Program-made: the position numbers and the translations under genes
Shown: one piece after another, positions 11,443 through 55,541 of the stretch
Numbering within the stretch: position 1 is the first letter of the stretch
Layout of the letters: each line of letters opens with the position of its first letter
Assembly (NCBI GenBank): GCA_963720335.1
Contig: CAVRFS010000088.1
Coordinates: forward strand, 4,297-68,296
Reading direction: 5' to 3'
DNA: 64,000 nt
Source: an uncultured Planctomycetota bacterium
Lineage (GTDB): Bacteria; Planctomycetota; Planctomycetia; Isosphaerales; Isosphaeraceae
Notes under the pieces: model-generated
The model's input: the letters and a program-made list of their open reading frames with translations, nothing else
Told to the model about the DNA's origin: nothing
Databases searched by the model: none

Positions 11443-11564
11443 GCTACAGCGGTTTGCTTACGCAAAGGATACAGCTCGGCCTGAACCGTCCGAAAAGTAT
11501 GCCGACGCGCGCGAGGGCAAAGCCGTCGCCAGCGAAGCCGCGGGCTGCATGCGGTATCGGGCGC

Positions 11565-12369
11565 TCACTCCGACCTGAATTCTTGATAACGCTCGGGTGC
11601 GAATCGGGCGGCCAACAAACCGGTTGCTTCTTCGATTTTAATGGCCTGCACGAGTACACCCTCCTGCCCATACGGTAAGTACGCCTGGCACCGGCCTGAC
11701 GGGTCTATGAGACTCGTCGCCGATTCTTGGAAACGCAACGCATAATTGACACTGGCAAAGTAAATCGTGTTCTCCAGGCCGCGACACATCATCGCCTTCT
11801 CATAGTACGGCGCCGTCGGCCGCGCCCCATTGTGTGAGACGGACACCTTCTTGATCACTCCCCGTGTGGTGGGGATGAAACACGATTTTGGCGCCGCGCA
11901 CCGCCGCCCACCGAACCGTCTCGGGATAGCGCCAGCCCTCGTGGCAAATCGCCACGCCAAACTTGACCCCGTTGATCTCGAAGAGTCGCCGGGTATCTCC
12001 GGGCACATAAAACGGATCTTCGGTCGGGTCTAATTGGTTTTTGGTTTGGTATCCCTGAATCTGGCCAAAGGCGTCAATGACATAGGCGGCAATCTGCCGG
12101 CCCGCCTCCGTGAGCCTTTCCATGCCGAGGATTGTGCCCACCGCATAAGTTCGAGCCCACTGCGCCACCGCCTGGAGGACCCGTCCATGATCCGATTGAC
12201 CAAAGGGCAACACGTCAATACCCACTCCCCGCAAACCAGGGAGATAGGCTTCCGGAAAACAGACGATTTCCGCGCCTTGGGCCGAAGCTTCGGACAGGAA
12301 CCGCTTGATTTTGTCCAAACCGTCATCAAGGGACAAGGCGACACTCGGCGAGGCCAGGGCGATGATCAT
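11565..12369 (-). CDS. Carbon-nitrogen hydrolase (nitrilase superfamily)
   Basis: ORF 11800-12369 carries VCFPEAYLPG (Glu) and GVAICHEGWRYPE (Cys). The C-terminal part continues in ORF 11565-12008 (..NTIYFASVNYA..). One frame switch near 11850-12000. Confidence 0.75.
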
Positions 12370-12394
12370 GGATGACCTCCGATCAGAATGGATA

Positions 12395-13448
12395 TTACCA
12401 GATGTCGCCGATGGTGAAACCCTCCGGGAAGGGGTCGTCCGCCTCCAGTGTGTAATTGCAAAAGCCGGTGATCCACGCCCGGCCGCTGATCGTCGGCACG
12501 AAGGCGCGATACGGTCCGACCGACGTTTCTTCCACCAAGCGACCCGTGAAGATCGTTCCGAGAATCCCCTCGTGGTGAAAGTCTTCGTTCAGGCCTAGCT
12601 TCCCCTTGGCGTGGAGCGTGGCCATCTTGGCGCAGGTGCCGGTTCCGCAGGGCGAGCGATCGATCGCCCCGGTCCACGTGGCGGGACGATTCCAGTCAAG
12701 CCGGCCGGTCGACACGATGACAGCGTTCTTCGCTTGCGCTCCGGCCTGGGTCGGCGGTGCGGACAAAACCGTGATTGTCACACCGCGGAATCCCGGCTGC
12801 AACGGATGTTGGACCGGCAATTGTTCCTGAGCGGCTGTTTTGATCATCTCGCCGATACGCACAATTTCTCGTCCTTCTTCAGGAACGAGACGCAAGCCGA
12901 ACGGAGCTGCGTCGCTGATGACATAAAACATCCCGCCGTATGCGACATCGACCGTGACCTTACCCAGGTGCGGCACATCGATTTCTTTGTCGATGTGCAC
13001 CGCGAACGCGGGCACGTTGCGAAACGTGACCTTCCGGACCTTGCCGAGAGCGCACTCAGCCTGCACCCGAATGAGCCCGGCCGGCGATTCGAGCACCAGA
13101 TCGGTGATCGGCTCACGCATCGTTACCATACCCGTTTCAAGCAGGACAGTGGTCACGCAGATCGTGTTCGTCCCGGACATTCCAGGGTATTCTGTCTGTT
13201 CCATGATGACATAGCCGGCAGCGGCATCTGGGTGCGTGGGTGGCAGGATCAGGTTGCAGTTCGCGGCGGGATAGCCGCGCGGCTCGCGCAGCATCAGTTT
13301 TCCGCAACCCGTCAGCATGGTTTTGAAAATGCTGCATCTTTTCAAACATCGTGCTCCCGGGAACGTCGAGCACGCCGCCAACAATCACCCGGCCGGGCTC
13401 GCCGCCGGCATGCGCGTCCACGGCTTGGATCATTCGCGCCAAACGCAT
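12395..13448 (-). CDS. Proline racemase family protein (hydroxyproline epimerase/dehydratase type)
   Basis: The N-terminus MRLARMIQAVDAHAGGEPGRVIVGG (ORF 13137-13448) joins ORF 12395-13384. Motifs are PGMSGTNTICV and IDRSPCGTGTCA. One frame switch near 13320. Confidence 0.8.
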
Positions 13449-13510
13449 GGTTGCTCCTTATCGCAAGGTCGGTTTGATCCAGCTCCGTTTTCCGCAAGAA
13501 TCCACTTGGT

Positions 13511-32546: not shown

Positions 32547-34156
32547 TGGTTTCGCACATTTGGAGGCGGATGGACTGAGCAAAAAATCAGGTCGGCTTCC
32601 TCGCAAATTTTTGGCACCTTGTCATGGTTCTGAGGCAACAACATGGCGCCAAGGCAAGGAAGCCGACTTATGGAACTTATCGAATCCTTCCGCACGCTGC
32701 TACAGCAGTTCGACCCTGTCTTCACGGCCCCGACCTTTAACACCTATGTGGTTATCGTCACGGGCTGGATTCTCTCCCAACGTCATCGCTATGTAACCGA
32801 GATCATTTTCTCCAGTGGCCGTGTGGGCGACGGCCACTGGTCGCGGTTTCATCGTTTCTTCAGCCATGCCGCCTGGGACATCGACACCTTCTCCATGTAC
32901 TCTGGCCAAGCTGGTCGTGACGATCCTCGCCCCAGGCGCCCTTATCCTCTGGGCCGTCGATGACACCCTCTGTAGGAAACGCGGGTTGACCCTCTATGGG
33001 GCCGGTATGCATTACGACCCGCTCATCTCTAGCCGCTCCAAGGCCCTGGTCAGTTGGGGACATGACTGGGTCGTCCTCTGTCTGATCGTTGCGAATCCTT
33101 TCTGGGCTCCCACGAAAGTCTTTGCCTTGCCTATCGCCATGCGGTTGTACCGCAACCGCCAGGGACTGACCAAGGGAAAGAAGAGCAAGGGGAAAACACC
33201 ACGCCCTAAACGCGATCCGAATCATCGCACTCGACCTGAATTGGCCCTCGAACTCATCAATTTGGCCGCAGGGTGGTTTCCCAATGATGAGATTATCCTC
33301 ACCGGCGACAGCGCCTATGGCGGTCAAAGCATTCTCTCTTACCTGCCCCCCAACGTTCATCTCATCAGCCATGTCCATCCCAAGGGAGCGCTCTACGAAC
33401 CGGCACCGGCCAAGAAGGAAGGGAGCAAGGGCCGGGCCCGCAAGAAGGGAAAGCGGTTGCCTGGCATGAAGCAATGGGCCGAGGATTCCACGCGTACCCT
33501 GGACTCGACTCAAATTCAATCAGTTTGGCCTGCACGCCAGCTTGGCGGTCAAGACGACCCAAGCCCTCTACTACAAGGCGGGAGGCGACCGACTGCTGAC
33601 GATCGTTTTGGTGCGCGACCTGGAAGGGAAACGTCCCGAGCAGATGTTCTACTGTACGAAGCTCGATTGGACGGCGAGGCAAATCCTCTCGGCCTATGCC
33701 TGCCGCTGGGCGATTGAATGCACTTTTGAGTGTTGCAAGCAGTTCTTGGGTTTGGAAGATCCGGCCAATCGTCTTCCCAAGGCCGTCGAGCGGACCGCGC
33801 CCATGGCGATGTTTATCTACAGCTTGGTGGTGGTTTGGTTTCACCAGTACGGGTCATCAATTCCTCCGCTTTCCCTTCCGACCCTGGTATCGCAAGAAGG
33901 AAGAGCCGTCCTTCGCCGACATGTTGGCGACTCTGCGGCGACTCAGTTACGAGGAGAAAACCCGAGCAACTGCCTCCGGAACAGTGTGAGCTGAAAACCT
34001 GGATCGCCCAGCTCACCGAACTTCTCAGCCGACCGGCGTGAGAGCGGCGTCCGGCCACTGATTCCCGGCCTCATCGCACACGTTGGCGATCGACTCGCCG
34101 AAGGGAATCTTACCCCTCGGGCCGATCGCGATACCGCCTCAAATCTGCGAAACAGA
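32546..34156 (+). mobile_element. IS element (IS701-like, IS4 superfamily) inserted in RND copy 2
   Basis: Imperfect terminal inverted repeats: CTGGTTTCGCACATTTGGAGGCGG (32546-32569) against the reverse complement of CCGCCTCAAATCTGCGAAACAG (34134-34155). One transposase gene inside. RND homology resumes at about 34161 (AGAGGATCTGGAC). Confidence 0.8.
32643..34041 (+). CDS. DDE transposase (IS701/IS4-like), at least 3 frame switches
   Basis: N-terminus ..FDPVFTAPTFNTYVVIVTGWILSQRHRYVTEII..HWSRFHRFFSHAAWD; WAVDDTLCRKRG; ILTGDSAYGG; YACRWAIECTFECCKQFLGLED (Y-x2-R-x3-E). Pieces are ORFs 32643-, 32815-, 33542-, 33696- and 33730-34041. Confidence 0.8.
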
Positions 34157-35306
34157 ACTTAGAGGATCTGGACATCCTATTCGTCAAGAACGACAAAGGT
34201 GAAATGGTCCCCTACTCCGCGTTCCTTAAGGTGGTAAAGAAGCAGGGTTTGAATGAGATCACGCGGTACAACCTGTACACCTCCGCCGCCATTCAATGCG
34301 CGCCGGCTGCTGGCTACAGCACCGGTCAAGCCATTCAGGCGATCAAGGAGGTCGCGCCCAGTCGCTGCCTCGCGGTTTCGACATCGGCTGGTCTGGTCTC
34401 GCTTATGACGAGGCAAGAAAGGGGAATGAGGCCGTTTATATCTTCCTCGTCGTCGTCGCCTTCGTCTATCTGGTGCTGGTCGCGCAATACGAGAGCTTTA
34501 TTCTGCCACTCGCGGTGATCGTGTCGCTGCCGGTCGGGCTTTTCGGTTCTTTCCTATTCCTGCAGGCCATGGGTTTGGCTAACGACGTGTACGCCCAAAT
34601 TGGTCTGGTCATGCTCGTCGGTCTGCTCGGCAAGAACGCGATCTTGATCGTGGAATTCGCGGTCCAACGTCGGCGGGAGGGCGTGTCTCTCAAGGAAGCC
34701 GCCGTCGAAGGTGCGAAACTGCGCTTCCGGCCGATTCAGATGACCTCCTTCGCCTTCATCGCTGGTCTCCTTCCGTTGGTCGTCGCCACCGGCGCCGGGG
34801 CGATCGGAAACCGCACCATCGGCGCCGCCGGAGCCGGCGGGATGCTCGTCGGCACGGTCATCGGCGTCTTGGTCATTCCCGGGCTTTATTATCTTTTCGG
34901 CCGGCTTGATGGCGGGCGGAAACTCCTCAAGGATGAGGCGGATGAACCACTTAGTGAGATTTTCGAACACCAGGCACTAGCAGCACACGATCGCGAAAGC
35001 AGACACGATCGCGATAGCAATGTTCTGCCACTTCACTGCGAAACCGCCGAATCTCTTGCGTCGCTACTTTCCAAGCCCCTGTTGCGACGCCCTTTCCCCC
35101 TGGAAATCCCCGACGGTACGGAAGAAAAGTCAACAGTGGAAATCCCTGACAGGATGGAAGAAGAAATTGCCGAATCTCCTGCATCGCTACTTTCCAAGCC
35201 CCCATCTCGACGCCCGTTCCCCCTGGAAATCCGTGACAGTACGGAAGAAAAGTCAACAGTGGAAATCCCTGGCAATACGGAAGAAGAGTCAATTATAGGC
35301 TCTTAG
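34157..35306 (+). pseudogene. RND efflux pump copy 2, 3' portion
   Basis: ..FVKNDKGEMVPYSAF.., LLGKNAILIVEFAVQRR, PGLYYLFGRLDGGRKLLKDE (ORFs 34204- and 34296-35306). Sequence after about 34935 is unrelated to the copy 1 tail and contains a tandem repeat. Confidence 0.8.
35046..35291 (+). repeat. Tandem duplication, 2 x 123 bp
   Basis: GCCGAATCTC..GGAAATCCC.. starts at 35046 and again at 35169. It is in frame with ORF 34296-35306 (AES(L/P)ASLLSKP..RRPFPLEI.D.TEEKSTVEIP..). Confidence 0.8.
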
Positions 35307-37615: not shown

Positions 37616-38833
37616 TCACTGTTTGTACCGCGACCTTCGGTCTGGCACTCCAGCGGGGCGGGAGACCCCGCGCTCGAACCACGAACGCGGTCTGGCGTGG
37701 TCGGGAGGCCCGCGCCGAACACTCGCCGCTTTAACAAAGAGCGAGTGAACCATAGTGCCGAAGTTGTCGGCGTTGTCAACGGACATGGCGATGCCTGACG
37801 ACTTCAGCGTGCGCCGGCCGGCTCGATCGGGGCCTCGTCGGCGCGGCGGGGGCGAAGCATCCATTGCCTCGGGGATCGCGATTCGCTCGGCAGGTCTTCG
37901 TGTCAGTAACCGGCGGACTTCCTCCACGGGCAGGAACGAAGCACAGCCAACCAGCATGACCAGCCCGAACGTCCACATTCCCAGGAAGGCCCCGATCCCG
38001 ACGTGAAGCACGACCGCACCGGCCAACATGATGGGCCGCCATAGCGGCTTCCAGATCAACACGCAGAACGAGATCTCCCAGAGAACCGACACGTGCGTCA
38101 TGAGGTTGACCAGCCACGGGTGCCACGCCAGCCAGGTCATGTCGAGCGACTGATATTCCAGATTGGCGAACGCCCGCCACATCGCCTCGCCGGTCCACCA
38201 TGACGGGCCTTGAAGCTTGGAAATGCCCGCGAAGAAATAGATGACGCACATGTGCACTTGAATCAGCCGCAAGGCCAGGTTGGCGATGCGCTCGGCGTCG
38301 GGCGGCGGCAGCGTCGGATCCGAGCCGCCGCAGCGCCAGCCAGCGGTCCAGCGACAGCGCCTGGCCACTCGGTCCGACGTCAGGTACAGGGTGAGCATGC
38401 GATTGATCTGGTCCAGGCCGAAGAACGCGGCGGGAACTCGGTTCGCGAACGAGATCACCACACAGAGCGACAGGAACGAGGTCACTCGCGTCCACAGTCC
38501 GATCGTGAACAGCGTAAGTATCGAGCATGGATACGGCATAGGCTGGCCACATCGCCCGGGCCGGCACCCACCACCAGAATGAATAGCGTGGCTTGATCGA
38601 GCTGGATGCAGTCGCACCAGGCGAGGCCGCAGCCAACTCGCGGGTCCGAAGAAGTCGTTGAGCGCCAGGCCCCATACGGCATGCGTGTACAGGAGCATCA
38701 GGCCCGTCAGCACCCGGATCAAACCCAGCAACGTCGGATCGGCCGGCGTGTGCCAGAAAGCGTTCCAACCCTCGGCCACCGATCGAACCACCTTTCGCAG
38801 GTAATGAGTGACTGGACTCAACGCGCCCCACAT
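37616..38833 (-). CDS. HTTM domain (vitamin-K-dependent gamma-carboxylase-like) membrane protein
   Basis: WNAFWHTPADPTLLGLIRVLTGLMLLYTHAVWGL.. and multiple TM segments. Short frame-shifted patches, with a parallel ORF at 37776-38831. The true stop is uncertain (about 37616-37800). Confidence 0.7.
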   Translation of the reverse strand: MWGALSPVTHYLRKVVRSVAEGWNAFWHTPADPTLLGLIRVLTGLMLLYTHAVWGLALNDFFGPASWLRPRLVRLHPARSSHAIHSGGGCRPGRCGQPMPYPCSILTLFTIGLWTRVTSFLSLCVVISFANRVPAAFFGLDQINRMLTLYLTSDRVARRCRWTAGWRCGGSDPTLPPPDAERIANLALRLIQVHMCVIYFFAGISKLQGPSWWTGEAMWRAFANLEYQSLDMTWLAWHPWLVNLMTHVSVLWEISFCVLIWKPLWRPIMLAGAVVLHVGIGAFLGMWTFGLVMLVGCASFLPVEEVRRLLTRRPAERIAIPEAMDASPPPRRRGPDRAGRRTLKSSGIAMSVDNADNFGTMVHSLFVKAASVRRGPPDHARPRSWFERGVSRPAGVPDRRSRYKQ

Positions 38834-39391: not shown

Positions 39392-39550
39392 CGCACGAGA
39401 GCTCACGCCAAGACCTCCTGCACAAAGACGAGGCACGAGAACGAAAAAAACAGGGGAAAGACAGGTCCATCCGTCCTTCCCCTTGAGGCCACGCGAAGGG
39501 GCGGCGACCCGGCTAGGACAGGGCCGCCGCTTGTCCTTATGAGCAAAACT

Positions 39551-40563
39551 TCAACGGCTGGCGACGGTTGCTACCGACGCCACCAGCTCGTTCGGATTCT
39601 GCCCGTCCGATTGAACCGAGACCGCGATCTCCTGTCCGGCCGTGACGACCGCCTGAGTCGTCTTCGACATCGGTCTGGCCGTTCCGCACGACCTCGAACT
39701 CGCACGTTGTAGACGTGCTGGGTGCCGCCGGCATCTCCGGGCTGACGAACCGGCGCTGGGTGCCTGCCAGGGTCATCAACTGGTCCTGGAGATAGACCTT
39801 GGCGTCGGCGGGTACGTTGACGTTGAGATATGCCGACGGCCGCGTGCGCAACGGCGGGAGCCGGGCGTGATCACGTCCGTGTTGCAGAACGGTCTGCCGT
39901 GGTCGGGACAGAGCGGAGCCACTGTTGTAGCTCAAGCCGTACGAGCCGCCCGAAGAGCCGCCGTACGAGCCACCCGAAGAACCGCCGCTGGAGCCGCCGC
40001 CACTGGAACCATGGCTGAACAGCGAGCCGTGTGAGCTGCCACCGCTGGAGCCGTGGCTGAACAACGAACCGTGCTTGCTACCGCCGCTGGAGCCGCCGCC
40101 ACTGGAACCATGGCTGAACAGCGAGCCGTGTGAGCCGCCGCCGCTGGAGCCGTGGCTGAACATGCGAGCCATGTTTGCTGCCGCCGCTTGAGCCGCCGCC
40201 ACTGGAGCCGTGGCTGAACAACGAGCCGTGCTTGCTACCGCCGCTTGAGCCGCCGCCACTGGAACCGTGGCTGAACAGCGAGCCGTGCGAGCTGCCGCCG
40301 CTGGAGCCGTGGCTGAACAACGAGCCGTGCGAGCTACCGCCGCTTGAGCCGCCGCCACTGGAACCGTGGCTGAACAGCCCGGCGAATAAATTGTGGCCGC
40401 CGCCGCCGCTTGAGCCATGCGAGCTGCCGCCACTTGAACCGCCCGAACTACCCCCCCCGCTCGAACCGACGATTTCGCAAATGCTGAGCCCGGTCCGGCG
40501 AAAATGAAGGCCAGAAGCGCCCAGCGATGCCCCCGCGAATGTCGACCAGCTAAGTCTCTGCAT
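39551..40563 (-). CDS. Secreted Gly/Ser-repeat protein with C-terminal TIGR03000-like planctomycete domain
   Basis: Start MQRLSWSTF.. (ORF 40078-40563). A signal peptide ..WALLAFIFAGPGSAFA is in a neighbouring frame, bracketed by G5 and G8 runs. Repeats are GSLFSHGSSGG(GSSGGSK)H. C-terminus is AYLNVNVPADAKVYLQDQLMTLAGTQRRFVSPEM..YNVRVEVVRNGQT..AVVTAGQEIAVSV. My manually derived stop is at 39551-39553. Confidence 0.7.
39930..40450 (-). repeat. Coding tandem repeats (units of about 14-19 codons, Gly/Ser/His-rich)
   Basis: Recurrent GCCGCCACTGGAACC(A/G)TGGCTGAACA(G/A)CGAGCCGTG blocks are visible on the plus strand. Confidence 0.8.
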
Positions 40564-41153
40564 CTGAATTCCTCACCTGTTGCAAATTGCTGTTGGAAAA
40601 TAGACTCTCGAACACGCTCTGCAGACGTCTCTTGCTGCCAATGATCGATTTCTCCGAGCCTTATCCTCCTTTCACTCATTTGGTTTCGTCGGCTCGTTCG
40701 TCCCGCATCGACCGAACGCGAGTTGCTTGCCCTCGGGACGCCGCCATGCCGCCTGAGAAACCAACCAAATCGCGCAGGATTACGAATGTGGATCAGCAAC
40801 AGCAATCCCTCAGCGAAAGGATCGCTGTCGCTTTGCACGTAAGTCTGAGTATTTTACAAATTTTGCTCTGAATGAGAATACTGGGTATTCTGGACGAAGT
40901 CAAACGATCGGGGAGAGTTTTACAACAATTTGAGCGACTACTAAAGCGTCTTGTCGAGAAGGCTGCTCGCAGCGCGAGTTCGTTGAGGATCGGACCGCGA
41001 ACCGGAGAGAGGCCGCGCGCTGTCATCGTGCGACTTGATCCGACCGTCTACTACCCAACAGCACCATTCCTCGATAGGTTAGGGTCGAATGCGATGGCCG
41101 GGCTTCATCGTCGATCCTTCATCGTTTCAAACGGTTGGGCGGGAAGCGAATCT

Positions 41154-42004
41154 ATGAGCCGACGGGACCCTTGATCCGAAGCATCGCCGACACAGCGCGA
41201 TGGGCCGCGGTCTTTCGCGCGCGAAACCGAGCGGCCGGATGCGCTGTTCCGCGATCCCCTGGCGGGAAGGCTGGCCGGCGAGCTCGGGCAGCGGATCGCC
41301 GACGAGGTCCCCGGGGGCAATAGCCACACGTGGGCTTGGGTATTGCGCACGTATTTGTTCGATCAATTCATCTCGCAGCAGATCGAGCAGGGCGCCGATA
41401 TGGTCGTCAACCTGGCCGCCGGTCTCGACGCGAGGCCATACCGCATGGCCCTTCCTCCGTCACTCCAATGGGTCGAAGTGGACCTGCCGGAAGTGATCGA
41501 CTACAAGGAGAACGTCATCGGCGACGAAAAGCCGGGGTGTGCGCTCGAGCGTATTCGTATGGATCTGGCGGATCAGAACGCTCGCCGCGACTTGTTCGAC
41601 CGTCTGGGTCACGGCTCCAGGAAAGCGCTGATCATCACCGAGGGCATCTCGTCTATCTGTCGCCCGAGGAGGTTGGCTCGCTGGCTGAGGATCTGGCACG
41701 TCCGGCTAGCTTTCAATCTTGGGTTGTGGAGTTGTCCTCACCCGGTCTGCTGAAAATCCTTCAGAAACAGCTAGGCCCGGGTTTGAGCGAGTCGGGAGCG
41801 TCGTTCAAGTTTGGCCCGCAGCAGGGGCCGGCCTTCTTCATGCAGTACGGCTGGAAGCCCGCCCAAGTCCGTTCGATGCTCAAATCGGCTGCTCAGATGA
41901 AACGGTTGTCTCCCTGGATGTGGCTCTTGTCACTCCTGCCTGAATCGACAGGCGTCCAGGGATCGCGGCCGTGGTCGGGTGTCACCTTGCTGTCGAAAAC
42001 CTGA
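41154..42004 (+). CDS. Class I SAM-dependent methyltransferase (leucine carboxyl MT / COG3315-like family)
   Basis: ATG at 41154. Reads ..SIADTARWAAVFRA.., LRTYLFDQFI..GADMVVNLAAGLDARPYRM, WVEVDLPEVIDYK, ALIITEGI. The C-terminus is in ORF 41330-42004. At least 4 frame switches. Convergent with the LanC-like end, with a 31-bp gap. Confidence 0.7.
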
Positions 42005-42035: not shown

Positions 42036-45000
42036 TCAGCGAGGTTCGTCGACCTCCGGGATCGACAGAAGCAACGGAGGAACCCGTGCTGGCGCATGCA
42101 GCCGCAGGTACCAGTAACCGTTCCGGCAAGGCCCACCATGAACGAGGGATTGGGACCGCCTGACGGAACTCCCGATGGCCAATCGCCGGATGCTGAGTGC
42201 CGATCGATCAAGGCTCGACCTAGCGCGCTGTGCGCGCGGAGAAACGATTCATCGCCGACCAACTGGCTGGCGATCAGCACAACCTCGCCCAGCCCCGACA
42301 TCCCGTGGCAGAGACTGGCATCGCTTCGCGGGTCCAAGAGATTCTTCTCGATCGCCTTCAGGGTCGTGGCGACGGCAACCCGGCCGGTTGCAAGATGTCG
42401 TTCCGCGTGATCCGGATCGAGCGCGACGGCGCGGAGCCGGACAGAGCGATCCCGGCGGCTCCGTAACACCAGGTACAAGTGAAGCCAGGGGGTGGCACGT
42501 CAGGCCTCAAGACACGCCAGTTTCCCGGGTCCGGGTCGAACAGGGAATCCTCGTACTCGAAGGCTCTGCGTGCGGCATCCAGGAAGTCGGGCCGTCCGAT
42601 CGCTGCGTATAACTCAAGAAGAGCCAGGCCAAGTCCGGCCGCGCCGTGGAGAGACCGCCGAGAAGGCCTTGTCCGTTTCGGCACCGGAGCTGGCATCCTG
42701 CGACCAAGAAGAGGAAGTGTCGCTCCTCTTGGCGCCTCGACAGAGTTCATCTCCCAGCTCGACTGCCAGGTCATGGCAGCGCCTCGAGCCCGGGCGTCCG
42801 AGCCAGCGATAGAGCGCTGCAATCGCACCAGCGTTCCCTTTGATCACGTCCAGATCGTGTGGTTCGGCGATTGCCTCGAACACCCGCGTGAGAATCGTCT
42901 CACCTGGGATTCCAGATCGTACTGATCAAGCATCGCGCCAAGCTTCTGGGCAACATAAGCCACTCCGAGCTGGCCAGCGAAGAACGAAAGTGGGGACACC
43001 CGCTCCTTGGTCGGCGGTCGGTCGAGTTGCTGGATCAACGGCCGATCGCACCGAGGGCTGTGCGGCGAAACTCAAGGTCACTGGTCAGTTGGTAGAGCTG
43101 GGCAAGGAAAAGGGCAATGCCCGTTGATCCACTATACAGGTGTGGTCCAGGCGCGAGCGGTCACCGTGATCCCACTGCTAACTTTGGTCTTTCGAATCCG
43201 GGCGGCCCATCCAGTTGCAAAGACGGCCTTCGACGTCCCAAATGGCTTCCCGGCACAGTGCCTGCCCAATTCGGATCGCGCCTTGCATTGGCGATATTGG
43301 TCGCAACCGATTGTGATGGCTCGCGCCGCTTCGCTCGCATTCATGCCAGCTAATGACAGATGGCCGCGTATCTCCTCGGTCACGGGCGGCGAGTGAGGAG
43401 ATGTAATCGTCGTCCGACTGGGCATTGAGGTAAGGTCGAGTCGAATCGAGACCTTCATTCCGGAATACCTCGCGAGCGTCCCTCGATTGACTGTCCGCCC
43501 GGTTTCTCCGCGGACGAAGGATTCCCAAAGAGCGTTTGCAATCACTTGACACCGGTGTTGTCCAGGCTCTGAGCGTTCGCCCGGGTCTTCCGCAAGGCTC
43601 AAACCGCTCGCCAGTCGCTTGGTGAACAGCGGCACTTCGGGTCGTAACCCAGGCCCATTACCTGATGAATCTGAGCGATGATTTCCCGGCCACGAGCGTA
43701 CTCCTACGTGAAGACAGAGCACTCCTGCGTCGGCTCGTTGGTAGACTGCGGATCGACCAACACCTTGAGCACGGAAGGGAATGTCAGCCGCATTCAGGAG
43801 GTCGGTCGCCGTGGTCAGCGCAGCAGCTGCCCCGACAGTGAGGTGCCAGTAAAAGCCGGATCAGTGGCTCGGCCGTCTCTACGCGCCATCCTCGTTCCCC
43901 ATGCCGTTGCCGATCGCGAGTGGAACCCAGGCATCCAATAGCAGCTCCTTACCGATCTTGACCCGGCAGGACTGGCCAGCCCTGATCTCCTCTTCGGCAC
44001 GACGCACCTGGGTCAGTGAAACCCAAAAAGTGATTTCGTCCTTGGTGACAGCGACACGTCCGTCCTCGCAGAGCCCCTGGACCCGCCAGCCTGGCTCCCA
44101 GGTGCCCGATCCCGAGTTGGCATCAGAGAGTACAGCGGCCATCCAGTCACGCCGAGCCAGCGCGTTGGGCATGCGAATGGCATCGTTCCTCGTCGGCCGC
44201 GTGTATAGCTGGCTGTACAAATTCTGCCGTAGGGCCAACACGAGCGGGGATATCATCGCGTCGAACGTAGGTCGCCATCGGTTCTGTTGAGCTTCGGAAC
44301 TCAAATCCACGATCACGCCGCCAAGCGTGAAACTCGCGGCTGAGTGGATCTCAACCGCATCAAGGACCGCAAGGAGATCTGGGTGGGGTACTCGATCATC
44401 ATCGTCCCAACGCCACGGGAATCCATAGAGCTGAAAGCGGACTCGCTCCGGTTGAGCCAGGAGGTTGGCGCTGATTTGGAGCAATATCACAGATTGAGGA
44501 GACAATCCTGGCAATTGGTAAGAGATCTCGTACGCCGTCTGAATCATGCGCGCCGCCGATAATTTGACACCGCGCTGCAATAACTCCTCGGCTTCGTTCG
44601 ACGTTAACTTGGTTGCCGTCTGGTATCCGTGCCAAAAAAATCTGATCGCTCTTTGAATCACGGGAAGCGGGTAACGTGCTTTGCCAATCCGCTCATCCAT
44701 CGTCATGTCATCCGAGAGAGGCATCGAGGCTCACCCAGAAGTCCACGAAATCTTGCAAAACGCCCACTAGATCCCCAGGCAGGGTCGCCGAACTGGACCA
44801 TCTCCCAATCCACGATGCGAATCTCGGTCTGGTTTTCTTGCGAGGCCAGGCCAGAACGTTGTCGAACTCAGATCGCCGTGGATCACAGTCTCCCGCCGCC
44901 AAAGTACGCGCGTAGTTTTCCGAGCCGCTCCGCCATCCCTCGCTGCGACTGGAGGATGCGGATTGTCTGAAGGTTTCCCCAACTCAAGCTTTCAAGCAGC

Positions 45001-45518
45001 GCCAGGTCCGGCTTGTGAATCTCCAGCACCCAGGGGATGGCATCACGCAGCCAGTTGAGTTGGGGGTGTCGCATGAGAACGGGCTGACGAAAGACGCGAT
45101 GAAACGTACCTAAGGCGATGCCGAGTGCCCGGCCCGCATCGACCGGGAAGCCTTGTTCGTCGTGAGCCTGGTAGTAAGCCCAAAGCGGCTCGGTATCGGG
45201 TACCAGTTCCAACGCGAGTAATGCCTCGTCGGGTTCAAAGTAGACGAGGCGCGGTGCAATCTTCGCCATCTCGGCGGCGGCCGTTACCTCCTGGCAAAAA
45301 CGACAGAAAGCAGCCTCCGATGTCAGAGTCTGATGGCTCCATTTCGCCTGATTGTCGGGTTGTTTGATCAGATAACCGGCGAGGTTCGGTCCCTCGACGC
45401 GAAGATTTCGATTTCGGTCGCACGCGGATGCAATCGTCAGTTCACCATCGATGATCCAATCGCGAGCGATCAGTCCGAATTGCACCAGGGATAGCGTCGC
45501 GTCATCTACTGTCAACAT
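42036..45518 (-). CDS. Multidomain lanthipeptide-synthetase-like protein: N-terminal APH/choline-kinase-type phosphotransferase, central unknown region (lyase?), C-terminal LanC-like cyclase
   Basis: Kinase: AGYLIKQ (Lys about 45363), VIHGDL.FDNVL (about 44869-44886), IVDWEMVQFGDPAWDL (about 44799-44816). No frame-independent stop separates the parts. LanC: AIRIGQALCREAIWDVEGRLCNWMG, LYSGSTGIALFLAQLY (about 43083-43130), DVIKGNAGAIAAL, LHGAAGLGLALLELY (about 42646), NW..TWCYGAAGI (Cys about 42466), SLCHGMSGLG (Cys-His about 42305-42310), NPSFMVGLAG. My manual frame ends GYWYLRLHAPARVPPLLL..* at 42036. At least 10 frame switches, so the continuity is reconstructed rather than observed. Confidence 0.65.
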
Positions 45519-45590
45519 CGCGACATTGCCATGGCACCAACCAAAATACCTCGCGATCGAATTGAAAAACGACTTACCATCTGTGTCTAA

Positions 45591-46083
45591 TCAGCAGTCA
45601 TCAGTAGGCGGCTTGCATACATAGCAGGAAAGTGTTGCGCACGTATGAATATTGAAAACTTTTTTAGCCAACACTTCCAAAGGTGATTCGACAGGTGAAA
45701 CTGCATCGGCGAAACTCTTGCACTCGAACCGCCCTCGCCAGGTTGGCTGACACAATCTCGCCTTGAAGTAACGACAGGGCTGAGCCAGGGATTGAACTGA
45801 CCACCAGGTCGAACGTGGTCGTCGACTCAATGGCTACAAGGATTGGCGCATGGGGATCGCCGGGGTCTGCTGACCAAGAGTGTAAGATATCGGCTCGGTT
45901 CAACTCGTAGTAAGACTTGAACGAAAGCCCGAGGTAAAGTCGGACCCGTTTATCAATGCTTGCAGGTCCCGGGTATCCGCTGAGAACGACTCGATTTGAG
46001 GGCTCATTCGGGTCGGGGCGGAGTACTCGGATCAATGGGCTCGGCGGAATCCTTTCTCCGTCCGGCTGCAATTCTTCGGGCAT
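45591..46083 (-). CDS. Candidate precursor/substrate protein: about 140-aa N-terminal domain plus Cys/Thr/Ser-rich C-terminal tail
   Basis: ORF 45664-46083 (MPEELQPDGERIPPSPLIRVLRPDP..) overlaps ORF 45591-45830, which ends ..SPLEVLAKKVFNIHTCATLSCYVCKPPTDDC*. A single 1-nt offset joins them. It stops 72 nt upstream of the synthetase-like start on the same strand. Confidence 0.45.
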
Positions 46084-46395: not shown

Positions 46396-49300
46396 TCACG
46401 GGAGAGTGCGGACCACTCTAAACCCAAAAGAATAATTGACGTCGGCAGGCAAGTCAGTGTACCGATTGGCCGAGCGTGCGACCGGTGTTCGAGCGGTGAA
46501 GGATCCCCCTCGCATGAGTCGGGGAGTGGCCTCCATGACGATTTCCGTCTGCGAATCGCTCTGCAATCCGTTATTGACGCTTTCGTATTCGTACTCACGA
46601 TCGTGACACCACTCTCCCAGGTTTCCCAACATGTCAAACAGGCCGAAGTCGTTTGGCATCAAGCTGCCGCATGGGAGTGGGCCGGGCTTTTCCGGGACGT
46701 CTAACCTGGCGTAATTCCGCAACAGAGCGGGCGTGTTTCCGTAGAAACGGCTTGTGAGGGTGCCCGCCCGGCAAGCATACTCCCATTCGGCCTCCGTAGG
46801 TAGCCGATATCCATCCAGATCCAGGGCTCCTGGTCTGATCCGAATTTCTTTAGCGTGTCGATGCTGATTGGTGGGCTCGTAAACCTCCCTGAGCCCTTCT
46901 CGTCCACTCAGCCAGTTGCAAAACGCGGCTCCCAAGTACCAGGTCACCGCGGGTTGTGGTTGGTCGGGTTTCGAGCCGTGAATCACGTTCGCGTAGGGAT
47001 AGGCGACGAGATAATCCTTCAAGAACTCTTCGAACTGGGCGATCGACACTTCCATGGAAGACATTGCGATCCGGCGCAGGATTCTTCGAGTGTGCCGTTT
47101 TTCCATTTTATAGAAGGGATCGCTCTCGGGCGAACCCATCAGAAAGTCAACGGGCCCGTCGACGACGACCATCGTCTGACCAATTGAATTGACAAACCAA
47201 CGGCGATTCCCCTTGTTCTTGTCCTTGGCGAGTTCCGCGTCGATCCTTCGCAACACATGGGCTTGGCCCCACCGTCTCAGTGTCCAATGCGCCGCACTGT
47301 GCACCCCAGGGTCCGGGTCGTTACGGTAGAGCGCGAGCAGCTTCGGGATTTCTCGCTCTCGATCATCGGTTAAGAGGCGATCGGGATCATAACGACCCAG
47401 GGCAAGAATCAGAGCCCGCCGTTTCGAGGTAACCGGGTCGAACAAAGCCCGGTGGTTCGGGTCGCGTGAACCATCAGCACCAATCAACCGGCGAGCATCC
47501 AGGGCCACCGGTGGGCTCTGCTCGATCCGCTGGATCTGCTCGATAATCTTCCACGGATCGGCACCGAGCAGTTCCAGCCAGTGAATAATGAAGCTACGAA
47601 GGCGCGGATCGGAGCGATGTGCCAGCAAGGGCCAGACTGCATCGTTACTGCCCAAGTGCACAAGTGCAACTGCGGCCTTGGCCTCGCGCTCCGCTTGCTG
47701 GTCCTTCTTGTTCTCGTCGGCTGAAGCGGATTCTTCGTCGTCATGGATCGCGGCTTGAAGTAAGGGAATTGCTTGCTCCATCTGCTGTTTGACGGCCTGG
47801 AGGATGATCCCGAATTCCTTGGGCTCCGCGTCCATGAGGAGATCTACCAGATCAATCGGACTGTCGCCAAAATAATCAACAAGATAGATCGTGGCTTGCA
47901 CTCGGTCCGTCTGGGGTCGAGCCTTGTTCCGCAAAATCTGTCGCAGGGGGCCAAGGAGAGAGGTCTTGGCCGGACGCAGGATCTTGAGCCAGTGTAAAAC
48001 GTCGACAGGGTTCACCGATACCATCGCTTCGGCGACTCGGCTCCCCACTTCGTTCCAGTTCTGATGGGCTGGGCCGTGTGCGCCAACACGCCTGCAACCG
48101 GCAGAATTCGGCTATCTTTGGGCGCCGCTCCACGCAAATCTTTCCAGAGTTTACCGCTCAAACTCCCGCGGAACGGCTGCAGACTATCTCGGAGCACAAC
48201 CGTCTCGATTGGATCTGCCGCGAGCAGACGATCATACAGAACATCGAGTTGACTACGGTCCTCCGGCAGCAGTGCAAGGCTATAGGCGAGTTGAGAACGC
48301 CTGTCATTTCCCGGCTGTTTCGCTAGAGCATCCAACTGTTGCGAATAGGTCCAGCGGGGGTAGCTCTTCAGTTGACGAAGAACTTTCGGAATATTTTCGA
48401 CGTTGGCCGTCGAAAGCTGAGAGAGCAGCCTATCCGTTCCGGTGTATGCGTAAAAGACGAGTCCCGCCGTGCTCAGCAATCCCAGCAGACCCAGAAGGCC
48501 GATCAGTCTGTTCCCGTGCACCAGGCCCTGCGCCATCATCCGGCGCTGTGAATCGGACCAGTCTTTTCGACGAGTCAAAGTCCGGATTCCTGACCCATTC
48601 CGGGGCTGAAGGCAGGTAACGGCGCTCGGGTTTGGCGCTCCACTGCGTCATGGCCTCAGCCAACAAGAGCTCCGCCCTTCCGCGGCTCGTTTCGCGCTGT
48701 TTGCGGGTCAGCCAGTCGCGCAGTGGAGTGTACCAGATAATCGTGTGTTAGTTGGTAGCAATTTGCGTCGGCCTTGGAAGTAGATTTCCCCTCATGAATC
48801 GAGCCCTCGGGATCGACCGGCGTGATCAGGCGAAGGTCGTTGTCGAGCACGCGGATCAGGTCGTCGAAGTCCCGGCCGGTCGGCGTATCCTGAGAGCTTC
48901 CCGCAACTCCTCGATCGACCGCATCCGGCCCTTGATATCGGCGTCGGTCTCGGGCAGCAGCGACTTCAAGACGGCCTGGGCCGCCTTCTGGTGATAACGG
49001 TGCTTCGGGGGACACGCGTCGAGCTGAAAGTCTCTTCGAGGAACTTCACGCCCACGCCGTCCATGCCGCCGACTTCCCGCAGGTCGCGGGCGTCCACGGC
49101 TTCGCCCTTGACCATCTCGGCGAACAGCGCCAGCCGGACCGGGACGATCTTGCCGTCCTGGGCCAAGCCCGGAGATGGCCTGGTCGAGGAAGCTGCCTGT
49201 TCCCTGCTCAGTCGTCGATCCTGCGGCGGGCAGAGCCTCGTACGCGCGCCCGTACGCCGCCAAGCACTTTGCGGGCATGTTTCGGGTCGAACAGGTCGAC

Positions 49301-51227
49301 GGCGGCGACGTTGCGGTCAGGGACCAGGTCGATTTCGAGGTCCCTCATGAACCGGGTCGTCGCCATCCAGAAGTCGTCCCGCACCAGGCAGAGCGACCTG
49401 GACGTGCTCGCCGTCGCACTGCCGCAGCGCGGCGACCAGCTCGGTCGCCTCGCTCGGACTGACGGGCGAAGAGCCACTGCTCGAACTGGTCCAGGACCAC
49501 GAGCATCTTGTGACCGGCGGAGACAGGGCGGCCTCGCCGGAGGGCCGCGAAAGACTCCACGAGGCCAGCGTCGACGGCCAGAGCCGGGGAAGGCCTTGCT
49601 GGATCGCCCGGAGCAGTCGGGCTTCCGTCTCGCCGCCGCTGGCCTCGACGATACACCGGACTCGACGTGTCCGAGCAACAAGGGGAGCAGACCCGCCTTG
49701 ACCAGCGACGACTTACCGCATCCCGAGGGCCCGTAAATGATTCCGACGCGAAACGTCCTGTCCGGGTCGGTCGCCTCGATCCGCGTCTTCCAGAACCGGA
49801 GTCCGTCGGGGAGTCCCGTCCCGATCGCGAGGTCCGGGCAAGAGCTCGAGGAAGAAATCGGCGTCGTGCTCGTCGAAGGAACCGAGCCCCTTGGGCACGA
49901 TCTTGATCGGATGCCCGCTCGAGTCGGACGGCCCGATGCGCCAGGCGGTGCTGGCTCACCAGTAAGGCCTCGGGCGCACGATGATGGCGGCTCGTGCGGC
50001 GTCACGACGTCAGGCTGACCGCCCCCGAGCCCATCTTGAGGAAATGCCGCAGGTCCTCGGCCAGGTCGCGGGCGGTCGAGTAGCGCGTCCGACGCCCGCT
50101 TCGCAGAGCGCCTTCAGGCAGATTCGCTCGAGCTCCTTGGGAATCTTGTCGTCGATTTGGCGAGGAGGACGGGGTTCGATGATTGATGATCTTGTGCATG
50201 ACCTCGGGCCGCGAGCTTCCCCGAAACGGCCGCCGGCCGGTCAGTAGTTCGTAAAAGACGATGCCCAGGCTGAAGATGTCGGATCGTCCATCGACCAGGT
50301 GCCCCTCGCCCTGCGCCTGCTCGGGACTCATGTAGGCCGCCGTGCCGACGAACCGTCGCCCTTGCCCACGTTTTCGTCCTTTAAGGCCAACCCGAAGTCG
50401 GCCAGCGAGGGACTCCGTCGGCGTCGAGCAGGATGTTCGCCGGCTTGATGTCGCGATGGAACAGGTCCTGCGTGTGCGGTAGTGCAGCGCCTCGGCAGAG
50501 CGATGGCGACCAGCTCCGCGGCCTCGGCAAACGGGACCGGCCGCGAGCCATCCGAGCTGCAAGGTCGCCGCCTTCCATATACTTGGAAACGACGAAAAAC
50601 CGGCCGTCGTCGGTGCGGCCGACGTCATAAACCGGCACGATGTTGGGATGGGAAAGTCGGGCAACGATGCGTGCTTCATCGAGATAAGACTGTAAATTCA
50701 CGAATTGGGCGAGCCGCTCGGTGATCGGTACTTTGATCGCAACGAAGCGGTCCAGCTCGGCGTCGTGCGCGAGGTAGACACGGCCGAATCCACCTTGGCC
50801 GAGTAGCCGGATGACGCGGTAACGACCGATGTCGCCAGGTCGCACGTGTCGGAATCCGTATGCCGCGTCAGGATGATTCGGCGTCGCGGGTTCCAGAAGT
50901 CCAGTGGTCGCGTCCCTTCTTTGCGGACCTCTCCCCTGCCCGCCAAATCGTCATCGAACTTCTGCTCGAACGGCAGCTTCAAGAACGCGTAGAGTGCTTT
51001 CCGATCATTGATCTGGTCACAAACCGCGTCAAACAATGCTGGATCATTGATGCCGAGTGTTTCAGGGACGCGTCCTCGCGTTTCAGAAATCGCTCCTCCC
51101 ATTTCTCCAGGAGGTCCTGCAGTTCGTTCAACGGGGTGTCGACCTCGCTAGCGGATCGGGCGCTCTTGCCTCTGTCGCAGGCATCGAGCCGCGGGGCGGG
51201 GTCCAATTCCGGGTCTTGGTCGCGCAT
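46396..51227 (-). CDS. Giant signalling protein: Ser/Thr kinase, P-loop STAND-like NTPase, TM segment, HEAT-like repeats and an FGE-sulfatase (SUMF1/CLec-fold) domain
   Basis: [48 protein letters not shown] (ORFs 50381-, 50002-). [24 protein letters not shown] Walker A (49208-). TM segment in 48012-48578. The intact ORF 46396-48048 ends with ..[48 protein letters not shown]. The N-terminus is from ATG 51227. At least 8 frame switches. Confidence 0.75.
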
Positions 51228-51260: not shown

Positions 51261-51875
51261 TCAGAACGCCTGGTCGAATCCCTTGAGCCAGATTGCGAGT
51301 CGCCGTGTCGCGGCCAGCCAGAGACGGCTGACTTGCTTGGCGGGCAAGCTGAGTATCTGGGCGATTTCAACCTGGGTAAAGCCGCCATAGTAGCGCATCT
51401 CGAAGACCGTTCGCTGGTCGTCCGGCAACCGTTCGACTTGCTGATGAAACTCGGTCAAGATCGCGAGCCGGCTCGGCTCATTCGTGGTGTCGGGCAATCG
51501 AATGCGGCGGCCGCGTTGGAATCCGTCGTTCCCAGCGGGTCCGCGGTATCGATTCGCATCATCTCTACGCTGATGCCTGGCCATGTCCAGTAGCACTCGT
51601 GCACTTTTGTGGAATACAAGACCCATGAAGCCGTCCACGGTTTGTGGCTGGGTGGACTCCAGGGCGGTGACCAGGCGGATCCAGACCTCGCTGACAACGC
51701 TCTCGAGAACGTGACGACCGCGAAGGCCCGGAAAATCCTGCTCAAAAATCGAACCGGCGATCCGCAACAGGTGGTTATGCGTGCCCGCTGCAACAGTTCG
51801 GTTCGCCGGCGTGGGGTCGCCGCGGTGAAGACGGTCAATCAGGTCCTGGAGATCAGCGGAGGTGTTACTGGTCAC
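51261..51875 (-). CDS. ECF-type sigma-70 family RNA polymerase sigma factor
   Basis: Intact 204 aa. Region 2 is ..VVSEVWIRLV... Region 4 is LPDDQRTVFEMRYYGGFTQVEIAQILSLPAKQVSRLW. Its stop lies 34 nt upstream of the kinase ATG. Confidence 0.85.
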   Translation of the reverse strand: MTSNTSADLQDLIDRLHRGDPTPANRTVAAGTHNHLLRIAGSIFEQDFPGLRGRHVLESVVSEVWIRLVTALESTQPQTVDGFMGLVFHKSARVLLDMARHQRRDDANRYRGPAGNDGFQRGRRIRLPDTTNEPSRLAILTEFHQQVERLPDDQRTVFEMRYYGGFTQVEIAQILSLPAKQVSRLWLAATRRLAIWLKGFDQAF

Positions 51876-53949: not shown

Positions 53950-55541
53950 TCAGAACTCAGAAGCCGCAACGGCGAGTCCCTCGTCCTCGGTGACTTCGCG
54001 CTCATGCGTTGACGAATGCAAGAGTGTGGCTTCCGCGTTTGGAAGCCAGAGGGCACAGACCAATGTGCCGACCGCCAGGAGGGTCATCTGCAGATAAATG
54101 TCCTTCAGCGTCAGACCCAGGTTCACCTGGACGGCCGCAAGTTGAGTGGCCGACAGCAGCTCATGGGTCTCCGGCCTGAGCGCGGCGGCGACGTCGATTC
54201 CTGACGCTCCGGAGACAGCCAGGCGACGAGTCGAGCTCCCAACCGAGAGTCGCGCCGAGAAGACCGACGCCGAGCGCACCGCCGATTGTGCGGAGAAACG
54301 TGACCGCACCGGTCGCCACTCCCCGCTGTCCCCAGTTCACCGCGTGTTGCACGGCGAGGATAAAGCTGAGCGAGGTCGGCCCAAACCCGAGGCCACAAAC
54401 CGCTAGTCCGACCATGAAACACACACGCGACCATTCCGGAATGGTTGTGCCAACGACGAGACCGAGCGTCCCCAGGGCCACCAAGGCCGAGCCGACCATG
54501 CCTCCGCGACGGAAACCATAGTGCACGACCGCCTTCGCGGCCAGGGCCACGCTGATCGCCCAGGCGAGGAAAAGCGGCATCAGCGCCCGCCCGCCGAGGG
54601 TCGCATTTCCGCCGCGCACGCCTTGAATGTAAAGCGGCACGTAGGTTTCGAGTCCGAACAGGATGCCGCCGACAAGAAAACTGCCGATCAGCGACGCCGC
54701 GATCACGGGCCGAGTCATCAGGTCCATGGGCAGGATCGGGTCGGCGGCGTGGTGCTCGCGAATCACGAAGGCAATGAGAATCGCGACCGCGGCACCCAGC
54801 AGAGCCAGGTCGACCGGCCAACTGAGCCGCGAGCCGTCCAGCACGACCCACAACAATGTGGACATCCCCAAAGTCAATAAGACTGCACAGACCAATCGAT
54901 CGGCGCCACCGTCCGCTCGACCGAAGGCTCTGTCACGTAAAAGATTAGCATCCCGATCGCCAGGACAGCGAACGGGACGCTTACAGGAAAACCCAGCGCC
55001 AGCCCAGATGATCGGTCAGATATCCCCCGATCAGCGGGCCAGCCACACTTGATAATCCCCAAACCGCGCTGAAGAGCCCCTGAACGCGAGCCCGCTCCGA
55101 TAGCGTGAATAAGTCCCCCAGCATCGTCAACACAATCGGCCCAACGGCGCCGGCACCCAACCCTTGAATGCTCCGCATCGCGATCAACTGTCCCATGCTC
55201 ATCGAAGTCCCGGACAGAATCGAGCCCAGGCTAAAGAGCGTAAGTCCAAAGAGCAAAACGCGCTTGCGACCGAACATGTCGGCTAGCTTGCCGTAAATGG
55301 GCGTACTGACGGTCGCTGCAAGCAGAAAAGCCGAAATCACCCAGGGATAGATTTCGAACCCCTTGAGCTGGGCGATGATTGTGGGCATGGCCGGTGAAAC
55401 GACCAGTTGCTCCATCGCGGTTACCATCATTGCGACCAGGAGGGCCGCGGTTACCATCCGCCGGCCGTCCAGAGCCGATGGACTCGCCTTTTTCTCGTCC
55501 TGTTCCAGACCAACCTCGACGTCTACACTCGAATTCCCCAT
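53950..55541 (-). CDS. MFS transporter (DHA2-like drug:H+ antiporter family)
   Basis: ORF 54981-55541 carries ..YGKLADMFGRKRVLLFGL..IQGLGAGAV. It continues through 54874-55062, 54161-54895 and 53950-54309. At least 2 frame switches. Confidence 0.8.

Follow-up and report, generated by a model that had tools for sequence, protein, structure and literature searches.

The 64,000-nucleotide stretch of DNA analysed here, referred to as the window, derives from an uncultured Planctomycetota bacterium of the Isosphaeraceae (assembly GCA_963720335.1, contig CAVRFS010000088.1), and its minus strand carries, from position 46083 to 42036, a cassette of genes related to those of class V lanthipeptide biosynthesis (all coordinates are positions within the window). 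A candidate substrate or precursor gene of about 163 amino acids (aa), located at 45591–46083 from the list of open reading frames (ORFs) and by alignment to orthologues, is followed by a spacer of 72 nucleotides (nt; 45519–45590) and by a gene for a LanK-type kinase of the APH family (44399–45518, about 373 aa, delimited by frameshift-aware alignment and PF01636). The kinase gene probably ends in an ATGA stop/start overlap (44399–44402) that lies in two frames outside the as-read translation, and the overlap leads into a LanY-LanC fusion gene (42036–44402, about 784 aa, defined by reconstruction, Pfam and a set of homologues). In this last gene an LxmY/HopA1-like lyase module spans about 44402–43400 and is joined through a linker (about 43400–43150) to a LanC cyclase module of the zinc type, which occupies about 43145–42036. 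All of these features are on the minus strand. An initial annotation described kinase, centre and cyclase as one polypeptide, with an order and composition that it could not assign to lanthipeptide classes I–V. Our present data point instead to a class V-type lanthionine-forming cassette of three genes, encoding a substrate, a separate LxmK-like kinase and a bifunctional LanY-LanC protein, in which the appearance of a kinase fusion stems from insertion and deletion (indel) errors; we assign a probability of roughly 0.78 to this reading.

As deposited, the cassette is not covered by one long ORF; its coding sequence is scattered over nine or more ORF pieces that overlap one another and do not share a frame. 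When scanned individually, the pieces gave matches to HopA1 (PF17914) and LANC_like (PF05147), and none for the N-terminal pieces. The coding sequences were reconstructed with a protein-to-DNA alignment permitting frameshifts that was written for this analysis, guided by intact orthologues on two metagenome contigs, L001 and L003. The intact L003 cassette of precursor, LanK and LanY-LanC occupies positions 9456–13467 of that locus. The reconstructed HopA1-LanC protein shows about 51% identity to its L001 and L003 counterparts from end to end, with a full-length HopA1 domain (91 bits, profile positions 8–170 of 170) followed by a complete LANC_like domain (158 bits, positions 5–349 of 350), both scoring above their Pfam cutoffs. 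All four motifs singled out in the initial annotation for the central region, LRQNLYSQLY, SGSGTWEPGWRV, YQRADAGVL and VPLFTKRLASGLSLAEDP, are found in the corrected translation, and the cyclase motifs WCYG, CHG and HGAAG are present, in agreement with the complete LanC-like domain and zinc motifs described there.

A profile of the fusion family retrieved from the PDB the lyase chain 9dk1_B for the lyase half (1.4e-27), and LicM2 (the best sequence match), LanCL and NisC for the cyclase half; the search returned no chain spanning both halves, and no solved structure spanning both HopA1 and LanC domains was found. The AlphaFold2 (AF2) model of P0032, the closest HopA1-LanC relative (69% identity), has a mean pLDDT score (predicted local distance difference test) of 87.5 and comprises an α/β module from residue 1 to about 335, a disordered linker at 345–364 and a helical barrel at about 370–790. 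Foldseek aligns the first module with LxmY (9dk1_B) of the lexapeptide dehydratase LxmKY, with a template-modelling (TM) score of 0.80 and 27% identity, and the second with LanCL2, NisC and LicM2 (TM about 0.7). Arg183, Lys213 and Arg223 are invariant in the family alignment, with a spacing equal to that of Arg187, Lys219 and Arg229 in CaoY, for which mutagenesis demonstrated a need in elimination (PMC9486802). His587 of LanC and the zinc ligands Cys647 and Cys700-His701 are invariant as well. The profile match, the fold and the retained Arg/Lys/Arg set lend support to the earlier guess that the central region is a phospho-Ser/Thr lyase of the HopA1 type.

The HopA1-LanC fusion itself is genuine: both domains are present in all of at least 145 homologues. 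At least 473 confirmed loci with HopA1-LanC and an adjacent kinase occur among species-representative genomes from many phyla, and the nearest named relatives are metagenome-assembled genomes of Isosphaerales, Isosphaeraceae, Gemmataceae and other Planctomycetota. In NCBI such fusion proteins are named 'lanthionine synthetase LanC family protein'. One planctomycete contig (CAVURY010000043.1) carries two complete cassettes, L004 and L022, about 9 kb apart; a separate leader-domain gene belongs to each of them, and each is preceded by a gene for an FGE-sulfatase-type Ser/Thr kinase. A kinase and HopA1-LanC pair is also found on a 5-kb contig of a Nitrososphaeraceae archaeon metagenome genome (L015), where it could reflect either horizontal transfer or a binning error.

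The kinase could be aligned end to end from 45518 to 44416, with 206 of the 369 aligned residues identical to the L003 kinase. After correction it matches PF01636 with 46 bits against a cutoff of 23 and contains YLIKQ, HGDL (within HGDLSxDN), DNVL, VDWE and GDPAW, so that the APH-type motifs listed in the initial annotation are all confirmed. The best NCBIfam model, class V LxmK (NF038156), is matched over its full length with 75 bits against an equivalog cutoff of 315, and because of this score the kinase is, on profile evidence, assigned as a relative of LxmK and not as its orthologue. A profile of the kinase family finds its best PDB match in the kinase chain (9dk1_A) of LxmKY, and a search with the single sequence gave only weak APH matches and a MutL match that is probably spurious.

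The 281-aa ORF piece at 43879–44724, identical with NCBI/ENA entry P0001, spans the C-terminus of the kinase and the N-terminus of HopA1. APH-family kinases of about 375 aa match its first 37%, and HopA1-family proteins of about 345 aa its last 57%; since two kinds of stand-alone protein are matched, the piece crosses the kinase/lyase boundary. Separate genes with a 4-nt overlap encode the kinase (405 aa in L001, 374 aa in L003) and the HopA1 plus LANC_like protein (785 and 781 aa, in the same order), and the junctions read LYGIPMTMAS (stop) / MTIAIHSDLL in L001 and LYGIPLSPSPQ (stop) / MTEIHPDLL in L003. The same overlap is present on the P0032 contig, where HopA1-LanC begins at nt 171 and the gene ahead of it runs on to nt 174. 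A separate kinase gene lies directly upstream of HopA1-LanC in all of the approximately 74 loci with enough upstream sequence, either in another frame or with a stop three to seven codons ahead of the lyase start, and PF01636 was detected in none of the top 120 HopA1-LanC homologues.

The window contains the elements of this arrangement outside the translated frame. A second frame at the junction reads ..P-VALGR-TGA, with the stop five residues past LYGFP as in L001, and a third reads ATG ATG ATC GAG TAC CCC, five to six codons ahead of HPDLL. The TGA and ATG of these frames form a relic ATGA at 44402–44399, spaced as in the relatives. One extra shift near 44415 would restore the kinase stop TGA at 44401–44399, and two one-base deletions, in the C-runs TTCCCG near 44417 and TACCCCAC near 44388, would plausibly account for the departure from the canonical two-gene layout. 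The statement in the initial annotation that no stop surviving frame correction separates the three parts holds between HopA1 and LanC, a fusion seen in every relative; between kinase and HopA1, which share a frame as read, it is insecure in view of the relic ATGA.

Frame breaks are not confined to the junction. The frameshift-aware alignments require about 23–27 single-base corrections in the cassette, i.e., about one per 130 nt. These comprise one shift near 45726 in the precursor ORF, five in the kinase, all within 44909–44728 when guided by the L003 kinase, and 16–20 in HopA1-LanC (alignment from 44385 to 42057, guided by L001 and L003). The upstream gene at 51227–46399, encoding a 1609-aa Ser/Thr kinase, served as control; it is identical to its L001 orthologue at 981 of 1627 positions (60%) and requires 29 shifts over 4.8 kb, about one per 165 nt. 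An AcrB-type gene at 25.9–27.6 kb is split over three frames, and the genes for a major facilitator superfamily (MFS) transporter and an LCM-family methyltransferase are split too. The disruptions are nearly all ±1 indels, with deletions as the majority type, and they cluster, as in the five within 180 nt just upstream of the kinase/lyase junction. Three apparent in-frame stops of one alignment are paired shifts in the other, which leaves at most one possible unresolved in-frame stop among about 50 events in cassette and control gene. Identity to the orthologues of about 51–56% is held along the full length, and the tested invariant catalytic residues are retained. The same fragmented ORFs are present in the NCBI/ENA entries P0001 and P0152. 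Split neighbouring genes, near-pure ±1 indels and conservation along the full length favour assembly error over gene decay. Indel errors in the public assembly are the most likely source of the many frame breaks and of the seeming fusion of kinase and lyase.

Several observations weigh against the three-gene reading. As read, the junction ..LYGFP-WRWDDDDRVP-HPDLL.. lies in one frame with no stop (ORF 43879–44724), and the two-gene layout presupposes a further pair of 1-nt deletions inside a stretch of about 45 nt. Homopolymer run lengths do not differ clearly between the whole window, its clean stretches, its dense stretches and related loci and show no long-read error signature, and the indel contexts in the control-gene alignment are not clearly homopolymeric. 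At residue 229 of the corrected LanY-LanC (about 43730, minus strand) the window has Cys where the lyase motif ADAGVLY usually has its Tyr, the equivalent of Tyr236 in CaoY and Tyr158 in SpvC. A protease gene was not identified, nor was any gene for a transporter within the cassette. Finally, no experiment on any HopA1-LanC fusion was found in the literature. With respect to residue 229, the Tyr column is not invariant in the family alignment (Leu in two other members), and the Cys may be either genuine or the result of a base error. Loss of the Tyr codon through a six-base insertion, considered as an alternative, is rejected on the family alignment, which shows a simple Tyr-to-Cys difference.

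The continuous ORF across the junction (P0001) is the argument for a single APH kinase–HopA1 lyase–LanC polypeptide, in which WRWDDDDRVP would serve as the linker and which would constitute a new synthetase architecture. However, an ATGA at the exact spacing of the relatives persists in the other frames and is restored by two 1-nt deletions, the commonest type of error here, in a region where errors cluster. With 21 or more frame breaks, the window offers no uninterrupted frame for such a protein, the kinase is fused in none of the approximately 74 loci and none of the 120 top homologues, and even the 69%-identical relative has the 4-nt overlap. Because the relic ATGA stands at the expected spacing and the genes are separate in relatives, the three-part polypeptide is taken as an artefact, and the chance that it is real is very slight. 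The motifs and domain order of the initial annotation are confirmed, its one open gene is not, given the nine or more ORF pieces, and its three-part architecture has no example among the related loci. The claimed synthetase class would accordingly arise from indel errors, and domain fusions should not be read off error-rich assemblies. A called protein of 540 aa (P0174) starts with the leader domain of the precursor family described below and continues into LanK kinase sequence (MLSLDDAAPYLLERN..). It is probably another frame-error read-through, and false fusions probably arise easily in this gene family.

The density of disruptions, about 23–27 in 4 kb, together with the replaced lyase Tyr, would also fit a real pseudogene, i.e., a class V-type cluster decaying by accumulated frameshifts, and an IS-type (insertion sequence) transposase that interrupts an AcrB gene elsewhere in the window indicates that some real disruption occurs. 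However, the neighbouring gene for the 1609-aa kinase has about the same density of shifts, and frame breaks also divide the genes for AcrB, MFS and LCM proteins. Neutral decay would bring many substitutions and stop codons, whereas the events are almost purely ±1 indels with no clear nonsense codons and no large deletions, and about 51–56% identity along the full length and the tested invariant catalytic residues are kept. Decay is therefore considered improbable, and errors in the assembly of an intact three-gene cassette remain the preferred explanation.

The precursor ORF stops at 45591 with a core ending in ..NIHTCATLSCYVCKPPTDDC, exactly 72 nt ahead of the kinase ATG at 45518, as the initial annotation had noted. 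RNA folding of the spacer is not better than that of shuffled sequence (z = −0.18), and promoter and terminator scans of it gave no signal above chance; an RNA element at this place, such as a leaky terminator, was rejected on these grounds. A conserved N-terminal domain, roughly 46083 to 45730, precedes a variable core that is short in the window, with about 40 aa and 4 Cys. The precursor is 64% identical to P0153, and its orthologues from L001, L003 and the P0153 contig share the approximately 120 N-terminal residues and then diverge into Cys/Ser/Thr-rich ends (IHCGNTCVATSCDVC.., CASTNSGSCTGVHCG.. and TLPTCVYKSCNKCE, compared with IHTCATLSCYVCKPPTDDC in the window). The domain has no Pfam or NCBIfam match. 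Its AF2 model (pLDDT 84) has six β-strands plus helices, and it has no structural relative in the PDB, the best values returned by Foldseek being E = 0.14 and TM 0.33.

When the sampled loci were scanned with a hidden Markov model of the domain, at least 45 of them, from many phyla, proved to carry it on the kinase's strand and directly upstream of the kinase gene, in two copies at some loci. An exhaustive HMMER search from two seed sequences only gave at least 354 cluster representatives, among which the domain is always N-terminal. In sampled open frames and called proteins, the tails that follow are between about 10 and about 770 aa long, and the number of Cys reaches 82. In the genomic loci they contain 9.7% Cys, 10.4% Thr and 13.5% Pro, compared with 0.6% Cys in the leader domain and 1.6% in the enzymes (0.6–1.8% overall), and the tails of the 354 representatives have the same composition (9.1% Cys). 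At least two Cys are present in 43 of the 52 tails of the genomic-loci set, a few short tails being without Cys, and long tails are tandemly repetitive, e.g., GCPNTSTCPPQTH and CPSQLTFCQSQ. A conserved leader with a hypervariable Cys-rich core beside modifying enzymes is the classic signature of ribosomal peptides, and on this basis the proposal of the initial annotation that the upstream Cys/Thr-rich ORF is a candidate substrate is well supported.

In other phyla the leader domain heads open frames of 400–930 aa (L052, 2008–4809; L017, 2129–4726; L043, 2338–4728; L035, 3606–4799), with 34–82 Cys past the domain in tandem Cys/Thr/Pro repeats and a kinase gene directly downstream. The L052 frame accounts for the 82 Cys. 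These frames are candidates for very long lanthionine substrates.

The assignment of domains suggests a mechanism for the cassette. LanK would phosphorylate Ser and Thr of the core and, like the kinases of LxmKY and CaoKY, would probably do so while complexed with the lyase module. The lyase module, with Arg183, Lys213 and Arg223, would then eliminate phosphate to yield dehydroalanine and dehydrobutyrine, and the tethered LanC module, with Cys647, Cys700 and His701 as zinc ligands, would add core Cys residues to form (methyl)lanthionine rings. The N-terminal domain of the precursor may act as the recognition element.

With the enzymes acting as described, the product might alternatively be a thioether-stapled protein that keeps its folded N-terminal domain, and not a small secreted lanthipeptide; as a variant, the LanC module might add an external thiol, as LanCL glutathione transferases do. 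The leader region is confidently predicted as a folded domain (pLDDT 84), the tails reach about 770 aa and 82 Cys with tandem repeats, the cassette has no protease or dedicated ABC exporter, and the LanC module is structurally as near to LanCL1/2 as to NisC in the Foldseek comparison of the model, all of which is consistent with such a product. However, the window core of about 40 aa and 4 Cys is like that of an ordinary lanthipeptide, other families of ribosomal peptides, NHLP and Nif11 among them, also have long folded leaders, and the Cys richness of the tails favours intramolecular rings. A stapled protein as the product of this locus appears unlikely. More broadly, the cassette might represent a large, experimentally unexplored branch of lanthionine biosynthesis in which LanK and LanY-LanC act on folded-leader substrates with cores from about 10 to more than 700 residues, joined in planctomycetes by a module of extracytoplasmic function (ECF) sigma factor and Ser/Thr kinase. 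We hold this generalisation tentatively, at slightly less than even odds. If it is true, the longest Cys/Thr/Pro-rich repeat cores would be thioether-stapled proteins rather than peptides; if such substrates are truly modified, lanthionine chemistry would extend from short peptides to long repetitive proteins, and the leader domain would offer genome miners a new handle on such clusters.

The cassette is embedded in an array that is common to the window, L001 and the P0153 contig and consists of an MFS gene, two small opposite-strand genes, an ECF sigma gene, a Ser/Thr kinase gene of about 1600 aa, precursor, LanK and LanY-LanC. In the window, the co-directional kinase gene (46399–51227, minus strand) encodes a Ser/Thr kinase, an nSTAND NTPase and an FGE-sulfatase domain, recognised as Pfam pieces. 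The ECF sigma factor at the head of the co-directional array (51261–51875, minus) matches the Pfam families Sigma70_ECF, r4 and r4_2 and is 60% identical to the L001 ECF sigma. The MFS transporter (53956–55520, minus), split across frames, was recovered as four tblastn pieces with 65–83% identity. The approximately 1600-aa kinase gene is syntenic in L001–L004, L009, L022, L023 and the P0153 contig, and the linkage to ECF sigma and Ser/Thr kinase is confined to a planctomycete subclade. Convergent on the 3' end of the cassette, as the initial annotation had observed, is a frameshifted LCM-family methyltransferase gene (41330–42004, plus; PF04072 on 41343–41753), which is common only to the closest relative (P0032 contig) and is absent downstream of the cassette in L001 and L003. 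The ECF sigma/Ser-Thr-kinase linkage and the methyltransferase are possible elements of regulation or tailoring and not core parts, and a function of the MFS transporter as exporter or immunity gene is speculative.

Within about 10 kb, the downstream neighbours are the LCM gene and genes for a Gly-rich protein, an HTTM protein and an aldo-keto reductase, and the upstream neighbours are the Ser/Thr kinase, ECF sigma, small and MFS genes; no LanD- or LanX-like gene was detected among them when ORFs of at least 150 aa were screened. The Gly-rich protein corresponds to a Gly/Ser/His-rich repetitive ORF without Pfam match (39537–40838, minus, with overlapping ORFs at 40078–40563; e.g., SLFSHGSSGGGSSGGSKHG), adjoined by the HTTM-domain protein at 37616–38833.

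Further features lie at a distance from the cassette. The split AcrB-type gene noted above (25940–27601, plus) carries ACR_tran profile positions 4–122, 124–260 and 314–498 in separate frames. A second set of AcrB-type pieces, of an RND-family transporter, extends over 30023–35306 (plus; ACR_tran positions 4–496, 541–752 and 841–1020), with DDE-transposase ORFs at 32815–33717 and 33542–33994 between the last two pieces, and this gene looks as if it were interrupted by an inserted IS element. Adjoining ORFs with SIR2_2 and CHAT (caspase-like) domains at 9265–11678 (plus) may form a defence-type gene pair.

The cassette shares its chemical steps with several known synthetases. The LanKC enzymes of class III and the LanL enzymes of class IV (ThurKC, 8sap; CuvL, 8car) perform the same three steps, and LanL also has a zinc-type LanC, but in these proteins lyase, kinase and cyclase, in this order, form one chain with a Hanks-type kinase (PF00069) and an OspF-like lyase, whereas the window encodes a separate APH-type kinase and a lyase of the HopA1/LxmY type. 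Membership in classes III and IV is excluded by the APH-type kinase gene upstream, and matches to NF038150 and NF038151 are limited to the cyclase region, with scores far short of the cutoffs. The cyclase module has its best NCBIfam match in the C-terminal part of the class II LanM model TIGR03897 (positions 550–930); the LanM dehydratase domain is absent and the score of 279 bits falls short of the cutoff of 304, and class II was rejected. Class VI synthetases, an unrelated LanKC-type family of streptococci, were likewise dismissed as relatives.

Closer correspondence is found with class V. The class Va pairs LxmK-LxmY (PDB 9dk1–9dk3) and CaoK-CaoY (PMC9486802) have a like kinase, the same lyase fold and the same Arg/Lys/Arg spacing, but lack LanC and use LanD and LanX to form AviMeCys, whereas a LanC module is present here. 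Class V in general is built from a stand-alone APH-type LanK and a HopA1-type LanY, to which subgroup Vb adds LanC; reviews summarise the Vb pathway of the SmoA system (Pei et al. JACS 2022) and credit the subgroup with one characterised member and over 240 predicted clusters (PMC12291118, PMC11186320, PMC10676316, PMC12328550). The view in the initial annotation that class V lacks LanC is thus out of date, and the composition it could not assign to classes I–V is that of class Vb.

With class Vb the window cassette shares an APH-family LanK, a HopA1-type lyase with the Arg/Lys/Arg set, a zinc cyclase of the LanC type, here fused to LanY, an adjoining precursor with a Ser/Thr/Cys core and the absence of LanD and LanX among the screened neighbours. 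Class Vb differs in that, in the accounts given by the reviews, its three enzymes are independent, whereas lyase and cyclase form one protein in the window; its leaders are short, whereas the window precursor has a predicted folded N-terminal domain of about 120 aa; and it is known from Streptomyces, whereas the present cassette belongs to Planctomycetota with a clade-specific linkage to ECF sigma and Ser/Thr kinase genes.

The same enzyme architecture, a phosphotransferase beside a HopA1-LanC fusion, appears in peptide Families 11/20 and 22 of the survey by Eyles et al. 2021 (PMC8153245), which reports a phosphotransferase beside 96% of 1,340 HopA1 proteins, places 20% of HopA1 proteins near or fused to LanC, and proposes 'a new uncharacterised lanthionine synthetase' for the fusions. 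That survey sought short peptides, whereas the window precursor carries the approximately 120-aa domain; the domain motif (RLYLD and variants) is absent from its supplementary text, which is possibly incomplete, and the long-leader substrate family may not have been recognised there. The searchable literature, which does not include the primary class Vb paper, yielded no description of this family, and it appears undescribed in the sources searched. Lyase, cyclase and substrate of the earlier interpretation find support, and the single polypeptide and the new class do not. The locus is a poor-quality copy of a class V-type cassette in which LanY and LanC are fused. Judged by its domain content, the enzyme architecture is assignable, as a previously noticed and uncharacterised variant of class V, and the value of the locus lies in an uncharacterised enzyme fusion and an unusual substrate family, not in the architecture first claimed.

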